DNA of 64,000 nt from a virus (IMGVR_UViG_3300031993_000024:1-64000), one strand, 5' to 3'; positions 3,558 through 47,400 are shown, counted from the first letter of the stretch. The notes: generated by a model not told the origin, from the sequence alone. Numbers and translations: made by a program.

Positions 3558-3744
3558 CCCAACAAATTTTCTTTTTCTATTTATGTTTAACCCAACATAT
3601 AAAAAACAACGTTTCCAACAGAATTATTAACAACATCTGATGTTTACCTACTAAGGCTTTCGTAAGAAATTGAAATAAAAAGTGTTAAGCCTTCAGGCAA
3701 ACAGTCAGTCAGAAGACATCCTCCAATGACTAATTATTGAATTC

Positions 3745-5207: not shown

Positions 5208-5265
5208 GAATTCTTTAGTTTGTAGGTAGTTCACAGAAATGACATAAATAAAAGAAACTGATATT

Positions 5266-20776: not shown

Positions 20777-23341
20777 ATGGCAATAGATTCATCTTTAAAG
20801 CATAATTCTGCCGGAGTTTACACTCTTATTATAGATAAGAGCCAGCAGTCTAACGACATGCCAGTTAGTCCTACGAGACAAAGGTTGCTAATAGGCTTTT
20901 CTAAGCAAGGTCCTGTTAACAGGCCTGTACAAGTCAATAATTATACGGACTTCGTAAAGATGTTCGGTGACATTGACAGAAGTCTTGAGAAGTCAGGTAG
21001 CTATTTTCACAGAATGGCTAAAATGGCATTGAATACAAGTTCAATACTTGTTCTTAATCTTTTGAAGACAGAAGAAAGTAAAGACAGGGTTCCTAACGCA
21101 GGCATATCTGTTGCTTCTGATGTGGCAAACAATAATATAATGTCATTGCCATTATCTGGATGCTATGACACTTCAGTATTCTGGATTCCTGATGCTGAAA
21201 CTTATGGTTATACTGTATCTAAGTATTTCGACCCTCAAGAGGTAAAACCTCAGATATTGAACTTCGTAAATATCAATAAGAAACCTGTAAGTATACTTGT
21301 AAAGAGGTCTTCTGAATACAACCGTATGGGTTATAACATGACAGTTAAGGACTGGTATGGTGATGAAGAAATTCCTTCATACCTTAACCCAACTTCTATT
21401 GTATCTGATTACTTCGTAGATGTTTATATCGTTCAAGGTGATTTCGGCCCGAAATGCGAGATTAAGCCAGAACCTACAGGAACTCAGTTTGATGACGGAA
21501 CAGCATGCCAGACAGAAAAAAGCATTCCTGTGGAAAAAGATAAACAATATTACAGATTTACCTCAGACATCACATACCAAAACTATTTCGATGAAAATGG
21601 TTTCAAAGCTGACAAACTTCAAGATTTCTTGAAGATTCAGTCTGTAAAAGTTCTTGCCACTTATACTGGCTGTCTTATTCCTAATTTCGTGAATAAGCTT
21701 GGTATCAATGTCTGGATACAAAAACTTATCAATGACGATACGAACTATACAGGTGTTATCTGCTATGAAAATACTGAATTGGTAGAGAATGCTGAAACTA
21801 AGTCTGGATATGACAATCAAGATATTATTGATGAAAAGATAGACATTATCGGCCATAAACTTGTACAGAAGCTCCTTGACCCTGAATCTGAAATAGAAGA
21901 TTCTGAAGGAATAGAGGTCAGTATGTTGTCATACTCTGGTAAAGTATCTGCATACGGTGAAAGTAATGGCTTGTATAGGAAAGTAAAAGCATATACGAAT
22001 GAAAGCCTTAATCCTAATGAAATCTATGTTGATAAAGATGAAAACATTAAGGCAGGCGATTATTTTGTATCGGATGTTGCTGTCGGCAGGTTGACAAGAG
22101 TATATAATGTTGAAATGGTAGAGACTTCTGTTGAGGAAAGCTCAGAGGCTGTATTCAAAAAAGTCATTTGCTATGATTCATTGCCTTTCATTGATGATGA
22201 GAGCAACGTATGTGTAGCTAAACAAGTTGATGATGCTGTAAAGAGCTATCAATGGATATGCCTTAACGGATTCAAGCTTGAAGCTCGACACATGCCTGGT
22301 ATCGGTGAACAGCAAGAACCTTTTGCTGTTGAGAAACAACAAGAGAATATTCTTTCTATTCTTGAAGAAAACTATGACAGGGATGATGTTAACAAACCGG
22401 AATACAGTTTGTTCAAATCGCTTGTGGATAAACGCATCTTACAGTTCAGGTATCTTGTCGATACATTCGGTAACGGTATTAGTCCTGAATCTAAGAAAGT
22501 GTTTACAGAGATTTGTCAAAAGAGACTTTCTCTTGCGATTATAAACGGACCTTCTGTAAAAGAGTTTAAGTCTGCTGAAAAACCAGGACCTGTGTTCCGA
22601 GGCAAGAACGGAATCGTTTCTGCAGAATACATTTCTAAGGGAGGTAATCCTAACATCCCTTCTCAGTTCAAGTATTCTTTACCTAAAGAAGAGCAGGGTG
22701 CTTCATTCGGCGGTTACTTCTATCCTTATGTAAAGATACTCGATAACTCTATAGAAAAATTCGTTCCGCCTTCAGCAGCTGTTTCGAATCTTTTCTATAA
22801 GAAAGGTGATTTCCCTTGGTACTTGGTAGCAGGTACTGAACTTGGTGTTCTCGGTGACGGCGTTAAAGGTGTTGAGTCTACGATAACTGATGACAACCGC
22901 GATTGGCTTGAACCATTCGGATTCAACAGTATCGTGAAGATAGACAACTATGAGGCAGTTATTTACGGTAACGTTACTGCTAAACAGTCTCCAAAGTCTT
23001 CATTGAGTTCTTTGCACTGTACTGATACTTTGATATATATCGTTCTCAGTATAGAAAGCATTTTGCAGAAATACATATTCGGTGTATATCATAACGATGA
23101 CAATACCCGTCGCGAAATCAAGAGTATCGTCGATTCTTTCCTTGAAGACATAAAGAGAGCAGGTGGTATCTATGACTTCAGTACAGTAATGAACAAATCG
23201 AATAACACCAATGAAGTCATTGATGCAAACTCTGGCGTTATCGATGTCGGATTGGAACTTGCTAAAGGTCTTGAGAAAATTACTCAAAGAGCAACTATCT
23301 ACAAGACTGGTGTAATATCTACATTGTCATTTGGCGAATAA
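20777..23341 (+). CDS. tail sheath protein (T4 gp18-like)
   Basis: N-terminal SAGVYTLIIDKS...LLIGFSKQGPVNRPVQVNNYTDFVKMFGD follows the gp18 pattern SPGIELKET...GKFQWGPAFQIKQVTNEVDLVNTFGQ. 854 aa; synteny with the tube gene. Confidence 0.8.
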   Translation: MAIDSSLKHNSAGVYTLIIDKSQQSNDMPVSPTRQRLLIGFSKQGPVNRPVQVNNYTDFVKMFGDIDRSLEKSGSYFHRMAKMALNTSSILVLNLLKTEESKDRVPNAGISVASDVANNNIMSLPLSGCYDTSVFWIPDAETYGYTVSKYFDPQEVKPQILNFVNINKKPVSILVKRSSEYNRMGYNMTVKDWYGDEEIPSYLNPTSIVSDYFVDVYIVQGDFGPKCEIKPEPTGTQFDDGTACQTEKSIPVEKDKQYYRFTSDITYQNYFDENGFKADKLQDFLKIQSVKVLATYTGCLIPNFVNKLGINVWIQKLINDDTNYTGVICYENTELVENAETKSGYDNQDIIDEKIDIIGHKLVQKLLDPESEIEDSEGIEVSMLSYSGKVSAYGESNGLYRKVKAYTNESLNPNEIYVDKDENIKAGDYFVSDVAVGRLTRVYNVEMVETSVEESSEAVFKKVICYDSLPFIDDESNVCVAKQVDDAVKSYQWICLNGFKLEARHMPGIGEQQEPFAVEKQQENILSILEENYDRDDVNKPEYSLFKSLVDKRILQFRYLVDTFGNGISPESKKVFTEICQKRLSLAIINGPSVKEFKSAEKPGPVFRGKNGIVSAEYISKGGNPNIPSQFKYSLPKEEQGASFGGYFYPYVKILDNSIEKFVPPSAAVSNLFYKKGDFPWYLVAGTELGVLGDGVKGVESTITDDNRDWLEPFGFNSIVKIDNYEAVIYGNVTAKQSPKSSLSSLHCTDTLIYIVLSIESILQKYIFGVYHNDDNTRREIKSIVDSFLEDIKRAGGIYDFSTVMNKSNNTNEVIDANSGVIDVGLELAKGLEKITQRATIYKTGVISTLSFGE

Positions 23342-23721
23342 TGGGATTAAGGGATTTCAACATATTGCCTCCTAATTATTTGGTGACTGAAGATAATTCA
23401 GCTGTTGAGATTAACTCCGAAATCGCGGAGTTAATCCAACAGATGAATGTTCTGTTTTTTACAAATAGAGGTGAATTGCTGAATATGCCTGATTACGGAT
23501 GCAATCTGAGCGACTACCTGTTTAAGACAAATTATAATGAAGATATGGTCGAGGCTGACATCAACGACCAGATGAAACGTTTTGTAAATACGACTGAAAA
23601 TGTCACATACGAACTGTCGGTAAAATTTCTGACATGGGAAAAAGAAGTGTGTATGGAAGTGGATGTCGACATCAAAAACCTGAAAACTAATGAAGGTACG
23701 GTGATGAGGTATTACGCATAA
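23341..23721 (+). CDS. gp25-like baseplate wedge protein (GPW/gp25 family)
   Basis: EIAELIQQMNVLFFTNRGELLNMPDYGCNLSDYLFK aligns to T4 gp25 SIKNSLLGIITTRKGSRPFDPEFGCDLSDQLFE. Confidence 0.8.
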   Translation: MGLRDFNILPPNYLVTEDNSAVEINSEIAELIQQMNVLFFTNRGELLNMPDYGCNLSDYLFKTNYNEDMVEADINDQMKRFVNTTENVTYELSVKFLTWEKEVCMEVDVDIKNLKTNEGTVMRYYA

Positions 23722-23774
23722 TTTTTTAGGAATTTTCAAAAAAAATAAATATATAAGAAAAACTTATAATAACA

Positions 23775-25730
23775 ATGGAAAATAAGAAATATATCGTTGA
23801 GAGTTTAAGTGACGGTGTCTGCTCAAGTTCTGCGGACGGCGGCGATATTGTTCTTGAAGGATGCTTCACGACATTTAACGTGAAGAATCGTAACAACAGG
23901 ATATATGACTCTAAGAATTTCCTTGAGAAGCTTGATGCTCTTACGGAAAAGATTAAGAATCATGACCTTCTCGGTGAGCTTGAACATCCCGCTAATATGA
24001 GGTATGTGTCTTATCAGAACGTTTCTCACATAGTTGAAAGTCTAAGCTATGACCAAAAGACAGATTCTATAAAGGGTCGTATCAAATTATTAAATACTCC
24101 TTCAGGAAGAATCGCGAAGACTCTTATAGAAAATAAAGTGCCTCTTCATATATCTTCAAGGGCTATCGGTACTTTGACACCTGACAATCATGTCGTTGTC
24201 GAAGAACTTATAACTTATGACCTTGTTGCTGAACCAGGTTTTGAGAATGCAGTTCTCCATGCAGTTAACGAAAGCAAGGGCGCGGGTTCTGACGCTCTTA
24301 TAAATGCCGTTAATGCTTTGAGTTCACAGAAGAATGCCAAAATGAAGAGCCGTGTAATACTCGAGTCTTTCGATGGCGCCGATTTGTACGAATTGCAGGA
24401 TGAAGGTCAGAAAGAACCTGAAAGCGGAAATGAAAAACCGAAAATAGACGGCAAGTCTATTATAGGTGAATTCCGTAAGGCGCTCGGTATGAATCCTGGC
24501 AAAATGGACATAACAGTCGACAGCGATATGGGTATCTGTTCTGTTGAATCAAATTCTGATACAGCAATAGTTAATTTCGTAAACGACCATGTTGAGGTTG
24601 AATTCGGAAAGAATGTAACAGGTGAATTCACAGGCATAATCAATAACGCTGTTGAACAATGTCTGAACAATATTGGTGCGAACATTACTGACGGTCCAAC
24701 CGTACAAGACGGAAAGACATATTTCTTTGTAAGTGGAATCAACTTTAATAATTATTATATGGAACAGAAGTTAGGCAACCCTCAAGATGTCGTAACAAGA
24801 CGCGACATGGATAAATACACTAAGTATTTGTCTGAATACTTGAATAAATTGAAAAAAGGTGTCGTTACAAGCGAAGACGTAGAAAAGTATACTGCATATC
24901 TTTCTGAACATCTTGCAGCTATGAATAAAAACGTAGTTACAAGTGATGCTATGGAAAAATATACAGGCTATCTGTCAGAACATCTTAAAAAGATGAATAA
25001 AGACGTTGTCACATCAAAGGATATGGAACGTTATACAGCATATTTGTCTGAACATCTTGAAAAGAACACGGTAACGGCTGAAATGCTTGAAGGATATACA
25101 AAATATCTTTCTGAAAGTTTCGATAAGGTTCTTCAGAAGAACAAGCAGCTTAATGAAAAAATTGAGATGCTTCAGAAGTATACAGAATATATCTCTGAGT
25201 CTCAGACTAAAATCAACAAAAAGCTTAGCGGTAAAATGCAGAGCATAGTTGAAGCTGCTGACAAATCTATAGAAGACATCAAGATGATGGTTGAAGGTAA
25301 ACAGCGCAGTACTGAAGACACTCAACTTCAAAACCTTGTGGAATCTGTAAATTCTATTGCTTCGTCTATTAAGGATACAAACAACAAGATGGAACAACAG
25401 AGTCAAGCCATAAATGAACAGAAATCTGTTACAGAGGCAGAAAAACTTATTCAATTTATGCCTGACTACTTGAAAGAATCTTGGAGCGCTCTTTCTGACA
25501 ACCGTAAGAAAGAAATCCTTAACGAAAGCAAATTGTATATTATCGGCAGTGTAGACGCAGCTGTTCGTTTCTGGAAGACAAGGAATCTTACGGAAAGCGT
25601 AAGCAGTCAAGATACGAAAAAATATCTTTCGGAATCTTTGAGGAATCAGAACAGGAACGTCCGTAATGAAGGAAAAGTACAGGCTTCTGTCGCTGAAGAG
25701 ATAAAAAGACGTTTGAAATACGGATTCTAA
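23775..25730 (+). CDS. prohead core protease (T4 gp21 family) fused to a coiled-coil scaffold-like C-terminal half
   Basis: N-terminal region (EGCFTTFNVKNRNNRIYD...GELEHP...HISSRAIG) fits the gp21/U9 serine protease His and Ser motifs. The C-terminal ~400 aa is helical and repetitive. 651 aa. Confidence 0.7.
   Translation: MENKKYIVESLSDGVCSSSADGGDIVLEGCFTTFNVKNRNNRIYDSKNFLEKLDALTEKIKNHDLLGELEHPANMRYVSYQNVSHIVESLSYDQKTDSIKGRIKLLNTPSGRIAKTLIENKVPLHISSRAIGTLTPDNHVVVEELITYDLVAEPGFENAVLHAVNESKGAGSDALINAVNALSSQKNAKMKSRVILESFDGADLYELQDEGQKEPESGNEKPKIDGKSIIGEFRKALGMNPGKMDITVDSDMGICSVESNSDTAIVNFVNDHVEVEFGKNVTGEFTGIINNAVEQCLNNIGANITDGPTVQDGKTYFFVSGINFNNYYMEQKLGNPQDVVTRRDMDKYTKYLSEYLNKLKKGVVTSEDVEKYTAYLSEHLAAMNKNVVTSDAMEKYTGYLSEHLKKMNKDVVTSKDMERYTAYLSEHLEKNTVTAEMLEGYTKYLSESFDKVLQKNKQLNEKIEMLQKYTEYISESQTKINKKLSGKMQSIVEAADKSIEDIKMMVEGKQRSTEDTQLQNLVESVNSIASSIKDTNNKMEQQSQAINEQKSVTEAEKLIQFMPDYLKESWSALSDNRKKEILNESKLYIIGSVDAAVRFWKTRNLTESVSSQDTKKYLSESLRNQNRNVRNEGKVQASVAEEIKRRLKYGF
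24804..25125 (+). repeat. about 4.5 in-frame tandem repeats (~72 nt, 24 aa: KYTxYLSEHLxxMNKxVVTSxDME) inside the scaffold region
   Basis: KYTKYLSEYLNKLKKGVVTSEDVE, then KYTAYLSEHLAAMNKNVVTSDAME, KYTGYLSEHLKKMNKDVVTSKDME, RYTAYLSEHLEKNTVTAEMLEG, YTKYLSESF. Confidence 0.8.
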
Positions 25731-27536: not shown

Positions 27537-27560
27537 TCTAACACAGTTAGAAACAACCAA

Positions 27561-27595
27561 GAAGGTCTTCCGTAAAAAGAAGACCTTCTTTTTTA
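27561..27595 (+). terminator. strong rho-independent terminator after the MCP gene
   Basis: GAAGGTCTTC-cgtaaaaa-GAAGACCTTC followed by TTTTTT. Confidence 0.75.
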
Positions 27596-27614
27596 TTGTG
27601 GTTTCTTGTAAAAT

Positions 27615-27629
27615 GTTGTTTTTTATATA
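27615..27629 (+). promoter_or_regulatory. GTTGTTTTTTATATA motif (copy 2)
   Basis: Exact 15-nt motif; the ATG at 27664 lies 35 nt downstream. Confidence 0.35.
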
Positions 27630-27663
27630 CAAACAAGTACAAACAACTAAAAACAAAACAAAA

Positions 27664-28418: not shown

Positions 28419-28445
28419 AGTCTACACAGTTAGAAATAACCAAAG

Positions 28446-28476
28446 AAGGTCTTCCGTAAAAAGAAGACCTTTTATG
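28446..28476 (+). terminator. second copy of the GAAGGTCTTC hairpin terminator
   Basis: AGAAGGTCTTCcgtaaaaaGAAGACCTTTTA; a near-duplicate of the 27537-27600 module. Confidence 0.5.
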
Positions 28477-28491
28477 GATTTCTGGTAAAAC

Positions 28492-28506
28492 GTTGTTTTT
28501 TATATA
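28492..28506 (+). promoter_or_regulatory. GTTGTTTTTTATATA motif (copy 3)
   Basis: Exact motif 18 nt upstream of the ATG at 28524. Confidence 0.35.
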
Positions 28507-28523
28507 AAAACAAAATTGCAGTT

Positions 28524-36262: not shown

Positions 36263-37111
36263 ATGGAAAAATTAAAGACATTCAAAAGCTTCATCAAAGA
36301 AAGTATTGATTTGAATGCTTTCAGAAAAAATAATGGAAAGTACTATCCTGAAGATAGAGATGAATTGAAATTGCTTATGGAAGCTCTTATAGAGGAGAGA
36401 GGTTTTGAAGGTGACTTTAATGATATTGACACATCAAGGATTACTGATATGAGCCATTTATTTGCATTTGCCAGAAGTTTTAATGGTGATATATCACAAT
36501 GGGATACAAGTAATGTGACGAACATGCGAAGAATGTTCAGTAGTGCAGAAAAGTTCAATCAATCTATTGAAAACTGGGAGGTTTCAAATGTAAAAGATAT
36601 GGGAATGATGTTTATGTCTGCAAAAAGTTTCAATCAACCTATTGGAAACTGGAATGTATCAAATGTAGAGGATATGGGAAGTATGTTTAGTGCTGCAGAA
36701 AAGTTCAACCAATCTATTGAAAACTGGGATGTCTCAAATGTCAAAATTATGAGAAGTATGTTTAGTGCTGCAAAAAGCTTCAATCAGCCAATTGGAAACT
36801 GGAATATTTCAAATGCCTATTATATGCCTTTTATGTTCCATAGAGCAGAGAAGTTCAATCAACCAATTGAAAACTGGGATGTCTCAAATGTAAAAAATAT
36901 GAGAAGCATGTTTAGTTTTGCAAAATGTTTTAATCAGCCAATTGGAAACTGGGATGTTTCAAATGTAGAAGATATGGAAGCTATGTTTCATTATACTGAA
37001 TCTTTCAACCAAGATATTTCAAATTGGAATGTTTCGAAAGAAGTAATATGCAGGGATATGTTCGTTAATTGTCCAATCAAGCAGGAATATAAACCTGATA
37101 TAAAACAATAA
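36263..37111 (+). CDS. CTS-like leader (MEKLKTFKSFIKES) plus DUF285/BspA-like repeat protein
   Basis: Leader, then ~9 repeats of FNQxIxNWxVSNVxxMxxMF, matching the DUF285 mycoplasma-type repeat. Confidence 0.8.
   Translation: MEKLKTFKSFIKESIDLNAFRKNNGKYYPEDRDELKLLMEALIEERGFEGDFNDIDTSRITDMSHLFAFARSFNGDISQWDTSNVTNMRRMFSSAEKFNQSIENWEVSNVKDMGMMFMSAKSFNQPIGNWNVSNVEDMGSMFSAAEKFNQSIENWDVSNVKIMRSMFSAAKSFNQPIGNWNISNAYYMPFMFHRAEKFNQPIENWDVSNVKNMRSMFSFAKCFNQPIGNWDVSNVEDMEAMFHYTESFNQDISNWNVSKEVICRDMFVNCPIKQEYKPDIKQ
36470..37060 (+). repeat. in-frame ~75-78-nt tandem repeats encoding DUF285-type repeats
   Basis: FNQSIENWEVSNVKDMGMMFMSAKS, then FNQPIGNWNVSNVEDMGSMFSAAEK, and so on. Confidence 0.75.
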
Positions 37112-40724: not shown

Positions 40725-41420
40725 ATGAAAAAATTAAAGACATATAATCAGTTCCTTAAAGAAGGAAAAGGCATACGTAAAGAATATGACAGCAGCCTTG
40801 AAAATATGATGGATGAATACGGAAGTGATTCCTATGGTTCTGTCATAACAAAAGAGGTCGAGGAACTGCAGACAATGCTGAAGGACAAAAATCTTTTGGA
40901 GCCTGTCGATAAAGTTGTGTCTGTAATGTTATACCCTGAACAAGATTGGCATCCGATATATGCGATGATACGTCTTGAAAACGGCTTGCAGTACGTAACG
41001 ACAATTATAAATGTAGCCGATAAAAGCAAACTAAGACTGATGTCTGACGAGATGTATAAGATATTGCTTGAATGGCTTCAGAATGTCATAGATGAAGACA
41101 AGAAGAAAAAATCAAGTATGAAGTCAATGCCTGAAATCAAGGATTTGCTGCCTGAATATCTGAATATCGTCAGTAGATTTGTTGAAATGTTTAATATAGG
41201 CAGAGCCAAGTATGAAGCTAAGATATATAAGACAGACTCGATTCTTATTACATATAACGGAAGATATAATGGGGTTCTCATATTCTCCAAAACTGAGTAT
41301 GCCTATAATATCGAAGTACATGCTGTTACTGGCGGATTTTATGATACTGATTATTTGTATGATGAATCCAGCAAAGTTATTAAAGATGCCGTTAATTACA
41401 TTTTAAAACAACAACTATGA
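40725..41420 (+). CDS. hypothetical protein with CTS-like leader MKKLKTYNQFLKEG
   Basis: 231-aa ORF. Confidence 0.7.
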   Translation: MKKLKTYNQFLKEGKGIRKEYDSSLENMMDEYGSDSYGSVITKEVEELQTMLKDKNLLEPVDKVVSVMLYPEQDWHPIYAMIRLENGLQYVTTIINVADKSKLRLMSDEMYKILLEWLQNVIDEDKKKKSSMKSMPEIKDLLPEYLNIVSRFVEMFNIGRAKYEAKIYKTDSILITYNGRYNGVLIFSKTEYAYNIEVHAVTGGFYDTDYLYDESSKVIKDAVNYILKQQL

Positions 41421-42136
41421 TTATGAAAATAAATGACAGAAATATGAAAGATATTCTCGGCGAGCTTAGTAAGGTCGTATCTGATGCGATAGGTCTTGAG
41501 AATATCGTTGGTTACTATACGAAGAAAACATACAGCTTCAAGTCAGATGTCCTGACGATTACTTTGTCTTATCACGAAGACCCTCAACGGGAATATTATG
41601 ATTTGAAGCAAATCAAGTCTGACGCGTATAATGCCGCTCAGAGTATATTTGGAGTATTTGCTCTGCAAGATTATAAAGAGCAAGCTGATGTTACGAAAGA
41701 TGAGATGTACGTCAATATCATCTTCAAGTTTACTGTCGACGAACTTGAAAAGGTGAAAGTCGTATATGACAGGCTTTTTACCGAGGGTAGCTCAAAGCTA
41801 CTTACTTACAGCCAGTTTATCAATGAGAGTTCTAAGAATGGTGTAGAGCTTGGTAACTATGAATTCGCGTATAGATGCGATGAAGAGGAGAATGCCGACG
41901 AGCTTATGGAAATAACTCATTATGACGAATTTGCGAATAATGACTACAGCATACAGGATGATTATTTCGGTTCTACAGTTAAAATCGTCAATACCGATGA
42001 GATGCTTCCACATTTATTCGGCAACAAGCCTGAAGAGTCAGAGATAGAATACTGTGCTTTGAATACCGTTTTGAACATAGCATTCATACTTGATAAATCT
42101 GGCTATCATTGGATTTATGAACTACTCACAAACTAA
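41417..42136 (+). CDS. hypothetical protein (no leader); its 3' end overlaps the tnpB stop by 15 nt
   Basis: 239-aa ORF; the last codons may be IS-derived. Confidence 0.55.
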   Translation: MIMKINDRNMKDILGELSKVVSDAIGLENIVGYYTKKTYSFKSDVLTITLSYHEDPQREYYDLKQIKSDAYNAAQSIFGVFALQDYKEQADVTKDEMYVNIIFKFTVDELEKVKVVYDRLFTEGSSKLLTYSQFINESSKNGVELGNYEFAYRCDEEENADELMEITHYDEFANNDYSIQDDYFGSTVKIVNTDEMLPHLFGNKPEESEIEYCALNTVLNIAFILDKSGYHWIYELLTN

Positions 42137-43318
42137 AGATTTGTGGGCTTCAGGCTTCGCAGACAATTGCTTGCAAGCAAGTCTTACATCGTCTCCACCT
42201 GTGTAATCGACAGTCCCTGCCGATAGAGTTGTTAATCCTTCTCTAAGGATATTGATAGCAGCATTTAAGTCCCTATTGTGGTGTTTACCACATTTAGGAC
42301 AAGTCCATTCTCGTACACACAAGTCTTTGATAGATTGATTGATATATCCACAGTCACTACAAGTCTGTGAGCTTGGAAAATATCTGTTAATCTTCACTAA
42401 AGTCTTGTCTTCCCTTTCACACTTGTATTCAAGATAGTTTACGAATGTTCCCCAACTGACATCAGCAATATGCTTTGCAAGTTTATGGTTCTTAATCATT
42501 CCTTTTACGTTAAGGTTCTCACAACAGATTATGTCATAGTTTCTGACAAGTTCTGTTGATACCTTGTGTAATACATCATTTCTTGAATTTGAAATTTTCT
42601 TATGAATCTTGACAACTTTTCTTCTTTGGTTTTCAAAAGAACGGCTGTCTTTTTGCTTACGAGAAAGATGCCTCTGTGCTTTACTTAATTTTCTTTCATA
42701 TTTCTTTGTATATCTATGATTTTTGTAAACTTTTCCATCTGACGTAATAACAAAGTCTTTTAATCCTAAATCAATTCCGACAGATTTATTAGATTTTTGT
42801 ATTGGTTCATATAACTGTTCTGTAAGAATAGCAACATAATATTTTCCATCGCAATCTTTAGATACTGTCATAGAACGTACATTCCCTGATATTTCTTGAT
42901 GTTTCTTTATTTTTATATTAGACTTGAATTTTGGTAATGATATAGAATTGCCAACAACAGAACAAAATTGTGGCACTACAAAAGAGTTTCTGTCTTTCCT
43001 TGATTTGAATCTTGGAAACTTCGCATTTCCTCTAAAGAAGTTAAGATATGCAGATTCAAGATGTCTCAAACTATGTTGTAAGGTTTGACTGTTAATCTCA
43101 TTTAACCAGACAAATTCTTCATGCTTCTTTAATAGAGTTAGTTTCTTAGCTTGGTCATAGTAATTATCAGACTTTTGTGTAGCTTTATATTGCTCCATAC
43201 GTTCGTTGAGAAAATAATTATAGACGAAGCGAGTGCATCCAAAATACTTACCTAACAACTCTACTTGTTCCGTATTTGGATACATTCTAAACTTATATGT
43301 CTTATAAATCGTTTTCAC
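42122..43318 (-). CDS. tnpB: TnpB (IS605 OrfB-family RNA-guided nuclease)
   Basis: HTH-like N-terminus, RuvC-I SVGIDLGLKDFV, zinc finger CSDCG...CPKCG, and RuvC-III NRDLNAAINIL. 398 aa. Confidence 0.95.
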   Translation of the reverse strand: MKTIYKTYKFRMYPNTEQVELLGKYFGCTRFVYNYFLNERMEQYKATQKSDNYYDQAKKLTLLKKHEEFVWLNEINSQTLQHSLRHLESAYLNFFRGNAKFPRFKSRKDRNSFVVPQFCSVVGNSISLPKFKSNIKIKKHQEISGNVRSMTVSKDCDGKYYVAILTEQLYEPIQKSNKSVGIDLGLKDFVITSDGKVYKNHRYTKKYERKLSKAQRHLSRKQKDSRSFENQRRKVVKIHKKISNSRNDVLHKVSTELVRNYDIICCENLNVKGMIKNHKLAKHIADVSWGTFVNYLEYKCEREDKTLVKINRYFPSSQTCSDCGYINQSIKDLCVREWTCPKCGKHHNRDLNAAINILREGLTTLSAGTVDYTGGDDVRLACKQLSAKPEAHKSLVCE

Positions 43319-43469
43319 AGTAACTATAACTTTCTATATTTATAAATTTACAAAAAACTTTTATTTTTGTAAAATTATTCTAAATAATTATACTTCAAAA
43401 AACAGGCACAAATATTACTTGAGATGTCATTTAATATTTGTTTGTAAATACAGAAAACAATTATTACAA

Positions 43470-43726
43470 TACAGACCGGATATAGTCGTAAAACAATTGT
43501 TTCAAAAATTTTACAAACTTCTGATTTCGATATTGATGTTATGGAGATAGACAAAGGCAATATACATCTTCTTATATCATATCCACCAAATATTTCAGTC
43601 ACTTCGATTGTAAGAAAACTCAAACAAGATAGTGTCCATTATCTGTGTTTGAATTATTACAACTTTCTTAAAAAAGAATTTTGGAAAGAACATACATTTT
43701 GGAGTGATGGATACTTTGTTCTATAG
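43470..43726 (+). pseudogene. tnpA: TnpA (IS200 Y1 transposase) remnant lacking its N-terminal ~60 aa
   Basis: FDIDVMEIDKGNIHLLISYPPNISVTSIVRKLKQDSVHYL...FWSDGYFV matches the TnpA C-terminal half. The HUH motif is degenerate (NIH); the catalytic Tyr is present. The frame opens only at 43448. Confidence 0.7.
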
Positions 43727-43768
43727 GTAAAGCAAATCAAGATACTATTAGAAAATATATAAAGAATC

Positions 43769-43911
43769 TGGGAAAAAGAAGTGTGTATGGAAGTAGATGT
43801 CGACATAAAAAATCTGAAAACTAATGAAGGTACGGTAATGAGGTATTACGCATAATTTTTTTAGGAATTTTCAAAAAAAATAAATATATAAGAAAAACTT
43901 ATAATAACAAA
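43769..43911 (+). repeat. 142-bp direct repeat of 23634-23775 (gp25-like 3' end plus downstream promoter region), ~96% identical
   Basis: Within the 84-nt coding part there are 4 differences, all synonymous third positions. In the non-coding part there is a single 1-nt indel. The copy's reading frame is closed 3 codons upstream. Confidence 0.85.
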
Positions 43912-43985
43912 GGTTAGTACGATTCATTCCAAAGGCTAAAGACCTTAGGATTTTCTTGCTAAAAATTATATAAAACTGATTACTT

Positions 43986-44702
43986 ATGGGAAAGTTAATG
44001 ACATATAAGCAGTTCATGGAGAATAAAACCATGAAACAAGTTAACGAAGGAGCAGGTGCAGGATATACCATAGAAGGCATTATACGAAATATCAATCTTG
44101 GAGAAAATGCGAAATTCAAGAAAGTAAATGATGATACTTTCATTATAAATGGTGACATCACCTGCAATGTCGAAGTCACTAAGGCTGCATCTTACGAATA
44201 TGGCGGAGATGATAAGATATTTAACGAATATAATGCTGCCGCCAAAATTTCGAATCTGGAAATCCAGGTATATGATATGGACAAGGGCAGTAAAGAAGAG
44301 ATAAAAGAAGACCTTAAACAGGCTGAGTTCAAATTCAAATGCCTTTACGGTGCAGGTTGGGTACATAGCAAGTTTGGAGGCGACTTAAAACTTAGCGATG
44401 TCGATACTAACGACTGGTCTAATTCGCAAATCATAAACGGCGAACTGCAGATAGAAGATGAGAAGCTTTGTAATTTTGTCGATAGAGTGGTACGTGGTGA
44501 TAATACATACACCGCATATACGATAAGATGTAACGGAGACCTTATTGAACAGGAATTCAAGACTGAGAAAGAAGCAATCGAATATGCTAAGAAGAACCTT
44601 GAACCTGGAGAGAATATCTGTAAGATACTTATGGATACCGATTATGAGGACATAGAAGGTGAAATAATCAGCAGAGATTCTAATATAGTGTACGAATTCT
44701 AA
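43986..44702 (+). CDS. hypothetical protein with CTS-like leader MGKLMTYKQFMENK
   Basis: 238-aa ORF preceded by ATTATATAAAA. Confidence 0.7.
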   Translation: MGKLMTYKQFMENKTMKQVNEGAGAGYTIEGIIRNINLGENAKFKKVNDDTFIINGDITCNVEVTKAASYEYGGDDKIFNEYNAAAKISNLEIQVYDMDKGSKEEIKEDLKQAEFKFKCLYGAGWVHSKFGGDLKLSDVDTNDWSNSQIINGELQIEDEKLCNFVDRVVRGDNTYTAYTIRCNGDLIEQEFKTEKEAIEYAKKNLEPGENICKILMDTDYEDIEGEIISRDSNIVYEF

Positions 44703-44727
44703 ATTCCATACTGTATATGAACGGAAG

Positions 44728-44760
44728 GCGTCAGGATTAAATTCTTGACGCTTTCTTTTT
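44728..44760 (+). terminator. rho-independent terminator
   Basis: GGCGTCAGG-attaaatt-CTTGACGC followed by TTTCTTTTT. Confidence 0.55.
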
Positions 44761-44765
44761 CTAAC

Positions 44766-44780
44766 GTTGTTTTTTATATA
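44766..44780 (+). promoter_or_regulatory. GTTGTTTTTTATATA motif (copy 6)
   Basis: Exact motif 21 nt upstream of the ATG at 44801. Confidence 0.4.
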
Positions 44781-44800
44781 AAACTAAAATAGAATATTTA

Positions 44801-46818: not shown

Positions 46819-47400
46819 ATGTTACCTACTTATCAATTACAGCAACTTATCAAGAAAGCGACTGAAAACAGAGAAAATTACGCAGTAAACGACCCTACTC
46901 GTTATATGGAGCTTGTCTCACAATGTGCGTTCCGTTATGCCAACAAGTATCCAAGAATTCCATTTGAAGATATTTTCGGATATGGCATGATAGGACTTAC
47001 TAATGCCTGCAAGCGTTTTGATGGAGACGAATTCGCTCGTCTTGCTTATTACAAGACATACATTGAAGGAGAAATTCGTCACGGTATCACAACTGAGCTG
47101 AACTATGTTCACCAGGCTGTAAACAATATGCAGAAAGAAGAAACGACGATTATCTCTATGACCAGCGGCGGAATTGATAAGGAATACGAACGTGATGACA
47201 GAATGATTACGGTCGAGAGATACTTGTCAGGCAACAACAGCCTGAAAATCGAGGAAATCGCGATTCTTAAACGCGAGCTCAAGTTTACTGATACCCTGAA
47301 AAGTGACATCTGCCGTGAATTCAGGCTTGACAGCAAAGGTTATCAAGTATGCCTTGACAATGCAATCAAAACTATGCGCAAGGAACTTGTTTACGCCTGA
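46819..47400 (+). CDS. sigma-70-family (ECF-sized) sigma factor
   Basis: Region 2: GYGMIGLTNACKRFD...ARLAYYKTYIEGEIRHGI. Region 4 HTH: IAILKRELKFTDTLKSDICREFRLDSKGYQVCLDNAIKTMRKEL. 193 aa. Confidence 0.7.
   Translation: MLPTYQLQQLIKKATENRENYAVNDPTRYMELVSQCAFRYANKYPRIPFEDIFGYGMIGLTNACKRFDGDEFARLAYYKTYIEGEIRHGITTELNYVHQAVNNMQKEETTIISMTSGGIDKEYERDDRMITVERYLSGNNSLKIEEIAILKRELKFTDTLKSDICREFRLDSKGYQVCLDNAIKTMRKELVYA

Follow-up and report, generated by a model that had tools for sequence, protein, structure and literature searches.

Two copies of a gp25-protease segment

The window, meaning the whole 64-kb stretch of phage DNA analysed here, carries two copies of a segment that in its source position joins the 3' end of a gp25-like baseplate gene to the spacer in front of a prohead protease gene. 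The features concerned are as follows.

23341-23721: gp25-like baseplate gene (Pfam GPW_gp25).
23635-23775, plus strand: copy A, the source, comprising the last 28 gp25 codons, TAA and the 54-nt intergenic region.
23775-25730: prohead protease gene (Peptidase_S77).
43769-43909, plus strand: copy B, a 141-nt insert inside an insertion sequence (IS); the A at 43910 is shared microhomology.
43769-43855: gp25 remnant of copy B.
43856-43909: putative promoter part of copy B.

Copy A reaches the base before the protease ATG and includes the whole 54-nt spacer. The copies match over 141 nt at 96.5% identity, far beyond chance, and are the sole long dispersed repeat of their kind in the window, with a longest exact repeat of 54 nt (23722-23775, equal to 43857-43910). 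A sequence-only reading of the window had reported this duplicate; it is real and 141 nt long, its coordinates having been off by one, as copy A starts at 23635 and copy B ends at 43909/43910. Alignment of the copies gives exactly the differences reported earlier, namely four substitutions (23661/43795 G>A, 23673/43807 C>A, 23679/43813 C>T and 23703/43837 G>A) and one additional T in copy B, in a T-run at 43862. All four substitutions are synonymous third-position changes in the gp25 frame, and each replaces a G or C in copy A by an A or T in copy B. The gp25 frame of copy B is closed by a TAA three codons upstream, again as described before. The probability that four random substitutions in the block would all be synonymous is 1.7e-4, rising to 3.2e-3 if only G/C>A/T changes are considered and to 6e-3 if these are confined to the coding part as well. 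That the 54-nt promoter part is free of substitutions carries no significance alone ((87/141)^4 = 0.15).

The source of the window is a metagenome assembly, and the window is identical to ENA contig ERZ27257203 k141_1795869 (238,631 bp). This origin speaks for a collapsed or chimeric assembly or for sequencing errors, which the earlier reading had named as its refuting case. However, 5 positions distinguish the copies, each copy has flanks of its own, and the independent Logan assembly SRR9008933 yields contigs 100% identical to the window. One of these stops at 23751 (repeat start + 29) and another begins at 43881 (repeat end - 29), relative to the 54-nt exact repeat. Both breaks thus lie k-1 = 30 nt into the exact repeat, the overhang that a genuine repeat leaves in a k=31 graph, and the second contig spans the junction of the block with the left end of the IS. 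A consistent break is seen in a third sample, SRR8543131 (strain 97.7% identical), whose gp25 contig stops at 23733 = 23704 + 29; we infer that this strain has copy B too, with the last G/A difference and without the additional T. An artefact can therefore be discounted almost completely.

Copy B interrupts an IS605-type element

Copy B lies between two phage ORFs, in a region occupied by an IS with the following parts.

41417-42136, plus strand: upstream phage ORF; the right end of the IS provides its final 5 codons and stop (ELLTN*).
42118-43966, minus strand: IS200/IS605-family element with divergent tnpA and tnpB, 1849 bp including the insert.
42122-43318, minus strand: tnpB, 398 aa, apparently intact.
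42125-42147: right-end subterminal hairpin, minus-strand loop TCTTTAG, with the tnpB stop codon in the loop.
43337-43344, minus strand: TATAAATA box without mismatch, 18 nt ahead of the GTG start of tnpB.
43400-43768, plus strand: tnpA pseudogene (Y1/HUH transposase), its 3' end cut by the insert after ...RKYIKN.
43910-43917, plus strand: displaced last tnpA codons, C-AA GGT TAG (Gln-Gly-stop) with the insert removed.
43928-43950: left-end subterminal hairpin, TCCAAAGG-CTAAAGA-CCTTAGGA on the plus strand, then TTTTCTT.
43986-44702, plus strand: downstream phage ORF of 238 aa, which the captured promoter presumably serves.

The block had been placed next to the IS, immediately after its end. 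Comparison with L022, an unrelated 164-kb viral contig that carries a related IS (81% nt identity), corrects this. Window positions 43768 down to 42118 correspond to L022 2526-4201 and positions 43964 down to 43910 to L022 2470-2525, so that 43910 and 43768 match the neighbouring L022 positions 2525 and 2526 and the block is absent from L022. As both flanks of the block are IS sequence and contiguous in L022, the block lies inside the element and not beside it. These boundaries rest on BLAST HSPs and manual reading, used in place of a MAFFT alignment that was misleading across the insert. The block sits 57 nt from the left end of the IS, within the tnpA codon equivalent to Gln131, and its junctions have 0-1 nt of microhomology, a single A on the right side and no shared base on the left. 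When 43769-43909 is removed, the tnpA frame closes as ...RKYIKNQG*, and the corresponding L022 sequence, GAGAATCAAGGTTAG, translates to ...YIENQG*. The alternative suggestion of a promoter duplication carried along by the IS came closer, the block being internal, formally cargo of the element, and equipped with a late-type box. More generally, a short repeat beside an IS may be internal cargo, and comparison with an intact copy of the element settles this at once.

The right end of the IS, at 42118, is firm: its terminus (...GTAGTTCA / ...TCTTTAGTTTGTGRGTAGTTCA) is common to 7 copies from different loci, with flanks that diverge directly after it. The left end lies at ~43966, uncertain by a few bases. 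Removal of 42118-43966 restores ...CAT TGG ATT TAT ATA TAA (HWIYI*) at the end of the upstream ORF, equal in length to the HWIYK*/HWIYE* of relatives. The empty site restored in this way is plausible and shows no evident target duplication, as far as a left boundary uncertain by a few bases allows, and three left flanks (TTATA, TATTG and TTTTA, or TRTAA under another boundary) yield no firm motif. Both end hairpins have the loop TCTTTAG on the minus strand, kept in L001 and L022, and terminal inverted repeats are absent. Together with the TnpB domains and a Y1 (HUH) TnpA, present as a pseudogene only, these traits identify the element, by all features tested other than the target motif, as an ordinary IS605-type IS on sequence criteria.

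TnpB contains the Pfam domains HTH_OrfB_IS605, OrfB_IS605 and Cas12f1-like_TNB and matches ISDra2 TnpB (8h1j/8exa) over its full length (E = 1e-88). The catalytic-type motifs GIDLG, CCENLN and HNRDLNAA and both CxxC pairs are kept in the ISDra2 alignment, as expected of a TnpB with RuvC and zinc-finger domains, and tnpB accordingly looks intact at the sequence level. The open tnpA fragment still scores as Y1_Tnp (Pfam, E = 1.7e-12), whereas the gene as a whole has at least 2 frameshifts and the HUH motif GNIH, not DHIH. Beyond a TAG at 43724 the next frame reads GKANQDTIRKYIKN, exactly up to 43768. Frame-corrected TnpA aligns to residues 18-131 of ISHp608 TnpA, the codon split by the insert corresponding to Gln131, 4 residues past Tyr127. 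In ISHp608 TnpA we take Gln131 to be a metal ligand and Tyr127 the nucleophile. Insertion of the block, by splitting and removing the residue aligned with Gln131, should alone disable the transposase, and tnpA is, judged by its sequence, dead.

In the closest relatives of the IS, tnpA is likewise lost (L001, L096 and L097) or frameshifted (L022), and tnpB is open in all. At the position of the TATAAATA box of tnpB, the copies from Paludibacteraceae (L096 and L097) have a Bacteroidota -7 box, TAAATTTG. This suggests that the nuclease gene of the IS has come under phage late-type transcription. Related copies occur in other large phage contigs and in Paludibacteraceae MAGs; the closest outside phage contigs come from rumen Paludibacteraceae MAGs, with TnpB 90% and 86% identical and no tnpA. 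The capsid protein of the phage has at most 24-31% identity to its matches, from huge uncultured phages and Lak megaphages, and capsid matches are mostly to Bacteroidota phages. Together with the Paludibacteraceae IS copies, they indicate a rumen Bacteroidales host.

Two further observations concern the ends of the element. The IS stops just 4 nt past the tnpB stop codon (42118-42147), which means that any omega-RNA scaffold must lie wholly within the tnpB ORF. A solo 22-nt relic of the right-end terminus of this IS family, TCTTTAGTTTGTAGGTAGTTCA, is found at 5212-5233 on the plus strand (0.01 chance matches expected). A GTTGTTTTTTATATA promoter-like motif adjoins it on the upstream side, and the CATAAATA box in front of gene 5266 begins 10 nt further on. 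It suggests an earlier IS copy that has been almost wholly deleted. A search with a 61-aa tnpA fragment, chosen to reach copy B in other assemblies, matched no record.

The insertion site in IS-free relatives

Three IS-free relatives (L093, L094 and L095) are ~90% identical to the window in this region. In each, the homologue of ORF 43986 directly follows the homologue of ORF 41417, 16-50 nt apart, and the upstream ORF ends in HWIYE* or HWIYK*. A T4-late-type box overlaps the upstream stop codon where the window has the IS, and the native box position is lost in the window. The L093 box, TATAAATA, ends 17 nt before ATGGGAAAG, and in the other two the AATAAATA box is separated from the ATG by 20 nt. 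For the window lineage, reconstruction of the site before insertion gives TATATATA, one mismatch from the box, so that the ancestral box of this lineage was perhaps not working.

The sequence-only reading had interpreted the block as a mosaic junction at the conserved gp25-end/promoter sequence, with the genes from 43986 onward imported together with it, and proposed a search for relatives with that gene order. The synonymous-only differences and the general mosaicism of the strains would suit such an import; however, both flanks of the block are IS sequence, contiguous in L022, and in all three IS-free relatives the ORF-43986 homologue stands behind the ORF-41417 homologue, not behind gp25, which makes this junction hardly credible.

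The IS is fixed in several samples, being found at the same site in 5 of them: a 99%-identical protein (P0009) carries the ELLTN* tail, and its contigs from SRR8543131, JGI 3300037512 and SRR11060108 run into tnpB. A strong terminator (14 bp) at 44723-44756 right after ORF 43986, followed by a gene with its own promoter-like motif, indicates that the unit served by any promoter in front of ORF 43986 is one gene.

The region just upstream has peculiarities of its own. Four consecutive genes (36239, 37236, 38256 and 40701) have near-identical 5' ends (ATGGAAAAATTAAAGAC..., with MEKLKTFKSFI-like N-termini) and look like a small paralogous family. ORF 36263-37111 contains a 75-nt unit repeated six times in tandem (36458-37038, copies 67-81% identical), which implies a 25-residue protein repeat. 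In L093 a single 111-aa ORF replaces the two ORFs preceding the IS site.

A late-type promoter box in the block

Each copy of the block contains the core of a box resembling the late promoters of T4.

23745-23751, plus strand: ATAAATA core in copy A, part of AATTTTCAAAAAAAATAAATATATAAG and 23 nt ahead of the protease ATG.
43880-43886, plus strand: ATAAATA core in copy B, directed out of the IS and 99 nt ahead of the ORF 43986 ATG.

The box of the block is AATAAATA, identical to TATAAATA at 7 of 8 positions. ATAAATA occurs 30 times in the window, with 17 occurrences intergenic (8.9% of the sequence), compared with 9.3 +/- 3.1 in composition-matched shuffles. Ten intergenic cores lie 15-38 nt upstream of a same-strand ATG, and the genes behind them include 18202, 19264 (tail-tube-like), the protease, 29633 and 45859 (baseplate-hub-like), which gives a TATAAATA-like box a short distance upstream of structural genes, as in T4-type phages. 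In a 61%-identical relative (L091), counted by hand from the alignment, TATAAATA stands at the same 23-nt spacing from the protease and the rest of the spacer has diverged. Upstream of 18202, a near-identical extended motif, AATTTTCAAAA..AATAAATATATAA, is common with the block. From these comparisons the promoter probably resides in the last ~35 nt of the block only, the gp25 codons being hitch-hikers. ORF 43986 has no core within 98 nt of its ATG, and its single one is that of copy B at -99.

Scans of the block gave no terminator and no plus-strand sigma70-like site, the sigma70 scan being uninformative for a Bacteroidota phage. RNA structure in the block is not significant (fold z -1.0 and -0.03), and Rfam, queried with the block and with an invariant stretch around copy A described below, returned no family, the sole hit, rli24, being at chance level (25.9 bits against a gathering score of 100). 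An RNA explanation of the block and the invariant stretch (fold z -1.6, -1.0 and -0.03) was accordingly dropped.

Other regulatory features were seen in the window. ORF 46819-47400 (plus strand, 193 aa) has a weak PHROG match to RNA polymerase sigma factors (E = 1.3e-8) and is a candidate, by this similarity, for the late sigma factor of TATAAATA-type boxes. A second repeated motif, CGTTGTTTTTTATATA(A/G)AA, is found at 27559-27640, 28443-28515 and 44723-44790, and also near 3586 (minus strand), 5179, 10887, 36239, 37236 and 59219. In several cases a G+C-rich hairpin and a T-run stand immediately before it, and these composites resemble the PeSL cassettes of T4-type phages.

Probable allelic origin of the synonymous differences

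Four further gp25 alleles (99.2%, 98.7%, 97.7% and 94.7% nt identity, measured against the window over the loci compared) all have the copy-A states and are identical to copy A across the block, so that none of the five gp25 alleles sampled shows the B states. Mosaicism of the strains, by contrast with a donor allele, can be demonstrated directly. Relative to L087/L088, 57 of 86 differences fall within 1 kb (21341-22340) of the sheath gene (20777-23341), a divergence of ~5.7% as against ~0.5% elsewhere, which clearly marks a recombination import in the tail sheath gene and shows that such patches are frequent here. This mosaicism, taken with a probability of about 0.003-0.006 for the synonymous-only pattern, makes it likely that the differences between the copies are those between two coding gp25 alleles, and disfavours neutral decay of copy B in place. 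The copies are best explained as descendants of different gp25 alleles in a recombining, mosaic population. Copy B may have been taken from an allele outside those sampled, perhaps at a time when another phage harboured the IS, or copy A may have been overwritten later, copy B keeping the older allele. The earlier inference that the differences arose in sequence still under coding constraint is supported as far as the p-values and the mosaicism go; a donor allele was not found.

The donor search covered the block and any synonymous variant of the gp25 C-terminus, with exact and degenerate (back-translated) queries against IMG/VR and JGI metagenome contigs, and gave 0 matches, a weak negative given that these collections are evidently without this phage. 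ORF 43986 and the protease likewise drew no relatives from IMG/VR, and an INPHARED megablast of both copy regions gave no match. A donor allele would be recognised by GGAAGTAGATGTCGACATAAAAAATCTG preceded by gp25 sequence (...TTTCTGACA) and not by IS sequence. Purely synonymous differences between a coding and a non-coding copy could be a useful marker of allele exchange in uncultured phage populations.

Around copy A, 243 nt (23630-23872) have no variable site in the window and the four strains, the last variable sites being 23629 and 23873. About 8 differences would be expected here for the 94.7% strain, and both flanks vary. The left edge of this stretch lies 6 nt from that of the duplicated block. 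Either its nucleotide sequence is constrained, or it is a recombination patch that these strains have recently come to share.

Two further ideas were set aside. Excision through the short direct repeats flanking copy A (ACATGGGAAAA / ACAATGGAAAA) found no supporting evidence, and functional homologous recombination between the copies would delete 20 kb of essential head genes.

A proposed replacement promoter and its alternatives

We hypothesize, with moderate confidence and from sequence comparison, that the block is a replacement late promoter captured inside the IS by illegitimate recombination and feeding ORF 43986. An IS605-family element would have inserted between ORF 41417 and ORF 43986 of a ~238-kb rumen Bacteroidales jumbo phage, landing on a short spacer that in the IS-free relatives contains both the stop of the upstream ORF and the T4-type late box of the ORF-43986 homologue. 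Later, the 141-nt piece with the gp25 3' end and the prohead protease promoter would have been copied into the IS, 57 nt from its left end, by illegitimate recombination with 0-1 nt of microhomology and in the orientation that fires outward. Its AATAAATA at -99 would give ORF 43986 a new late promoter, read through the weakened left-end hairpin, with the 84 coding bases as a hitch-hiker. By removing the TnpA residue aligned with Gln131, the insertion would also have frozen the element, after which tnpA decayed and tnpB stayed intact.

Compared with known IS-borne outward promoters, the block has the position and the orientation; promoter activity and read-through of the hairpin are predictions, as is any selective benefit. 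The left-end hairpin of the window is weakened by an A.A mismatch (-6.2 kcal/mol, z -0.25), whereas that of L022 has a perfect 8-bp stem (-17.8 kcal/mol, z -4.5) followed by UUUUCUC and is a strong terminator-like structure in this outward direction. L022 is a small natural control: there the IS lies 5 nt upstream of an intact AATAAATA box of an amidase gene, 19 nt before the amidase ATG, and has no insert. Several findings count against a replacement promoter. The leader is 99 nt long, compared with 15-38 nt for other boxes; the left-end hairpin and U-run stand between promoter and ORF 43986 and may still terminate; a residual TATATAAAAC beside the left end could itself have promoter activity; and read-through from upstream across the IS into ORF 43986 is possible. 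The 84 nt of useless coding sequence, moreover, have the look of random capture. Neither an IS-bearing strain without the block nor a donor allele with the B states was found, so that the order of events and the origin of the block are not directly documented.

The look of random capture leads to the strongest competitor, in which a break in the decaying, functionally unconstrained interior of the IS was repaired with a functionless filler from the phage DNA pool. The junction microhomology of just 0-1 nt, the useless coding share of the block (84 of 141 nt), the pseudogene state of tnpA in any case and the statistically unremarkable conservation of the 54-nt promoter part (0.15) all fit such a repair. 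However, it turns into coincidences the outward orientation, the late box, its like-for-like match with the box of the IS-free relatives, the weakened hairpin and the persistence across strains, and we regard it as possible though rather unlikely.

Doubtful, and less probable than such a filler, is an origin elsewhere, in which the block entered the IS in a related phage, from the gp25/protease junction of that phage, and arrived either by transposition, with TnpA provided in trans, or through recombination that brought in the entire IS region. A promoter role would be compatible with this history. It would explain why the differences are synonymous only, given p = 0.003-0.006 against neutral decay in situ, and why the B states are missing from the five sampled gp25 alleles; the block also lies between the left and right ends, where it would be mobilised with the element, and related IS copies do exist in other large phage contigs and Paludibacteraceae MAGs. 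Yet the loaded element, having lost the residue aligned with TnpA Gln131, would be immobile by itself, and neither another IS copy with the block nor a donor phage was found.

A more speculative extension gives the IS remnant a role of its own. The omega-RNA guide position corresponds to the minus-strand flank 3' of the right end, 42093-42117 (TAAATCCAATGATAGCC...). The sequence there agrees with the unoccupied site of L093 in 17/17 bases, and with those of L094 and L095 for 14 bases up to the first mismatch, which in principle makes IS-free relatives possible targets of TnpB. Remnant and promoter might then form a co-adapted unit kept by the phage, in which TnpB cuts IS-free competitors in co-infection and drives conversion to the IS allele; we consider this homing role improbable on present grounds. 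If true, promoter capture would be the compensatory step that makes permanent carriage of an RNA-guided weapon cost-free.

Very improbable is that copy B is still coding, through a 22-codon micro-ORF at 43787-43855 (MEVDVDIKNLKTNEGTVMRYYA*, the gp25 C-terminal strand) under purifying selection. It has an in-frame ATG, and all four changes are synonymous; however, no promoter or start context was identified upstream, the frame is very short, and the allelic origin explains the pattern equally well. To our knowledge, there is no precedent for so short a micro-ORF of this kind.

A replacement promoter, our preferred reading, would make this locus a stepwise case of a virus genome absorbing a selfish element, in which a promoter is hit, a replacement is captured, the transposase dies and the nuclease survives. 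If both the promoter role and TnpB activity are true, it would also show that in nature a phage can stabilise the locus of an RNA-guided nuclease.

Comparison with known systems

The late promoters of T4 have the sequence TATAAATA and depend on gp55. The boxes described here are likewise A/T-rich 8-mers of the same consensus, shortly upstream of structural-gene starts and with no -35 evident. They differ in that the block box, AATAAATA, matches at 7/8 positions, the host belongs to the Bacteroidota and a gp55 homologue is hinted at by the weak sigma-factor match of ORF 46819.

PeSL cassettes of T4-type phages, as outlined in PMC2839356, combine a sigma70-like early promoter with a terminator stem-loop. 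Many dispersed copies exist in hyperplastic regions, and these recombine homologously (PMC2839356, PMC4122927). The block is similar in being repeated promoter-bearing DNA in a T4-like genome, tied to a genome rearrangement. Unlike PeSLs, it has two copies in 64 kb, a late-type box, a coding remnant and no stem-loop, and was inserted illegitimately. Classification of the block as a PeSL cassette was rejected, as it lacks a stem-loop and a sigma70-like promoter, has two copies and joins unrelated IS sequence with 0-1 nt of microhomology. The likeness to PeSLs is greater in the other motif family of the window (hairpin and GTTGTTTTTTATATA).

With IS605, ISHp608 and ISDra2 the element has in common divergent tnpA and tnpB, end hairpins with the same loop, no inverted repeats, a TnpB close to that of ISDra2 and, as far as the left boundary allows, no evident target duplication. 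It departs from them in its multiply broken tnpA, with a phage-derived insert in the codon aligned with Gln131, in a right end 4 nt past the tnpB stop and in a tnpB with a phage late-type box.

Promoters directed outward from an IS are known, and so is compensation for the polar effects of IS insertion. As in those cases, the promoter lies in the IS near one end and faces a gene cut off from its own promoter. Unlike them, the block is not native to the IS and forms no hybrid -35/-10 promoter; it is a secondary capture of 141 nt of phage DNA with a piece of a structural gene attached, and the host genome is that of a jumbo phage, not of a bacterium. The locus is a variant of this known theme and not a new system. 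Its unusual part is the secondary capture, within an IS, of a phage promoter of the same class as the one that the IS displaced.
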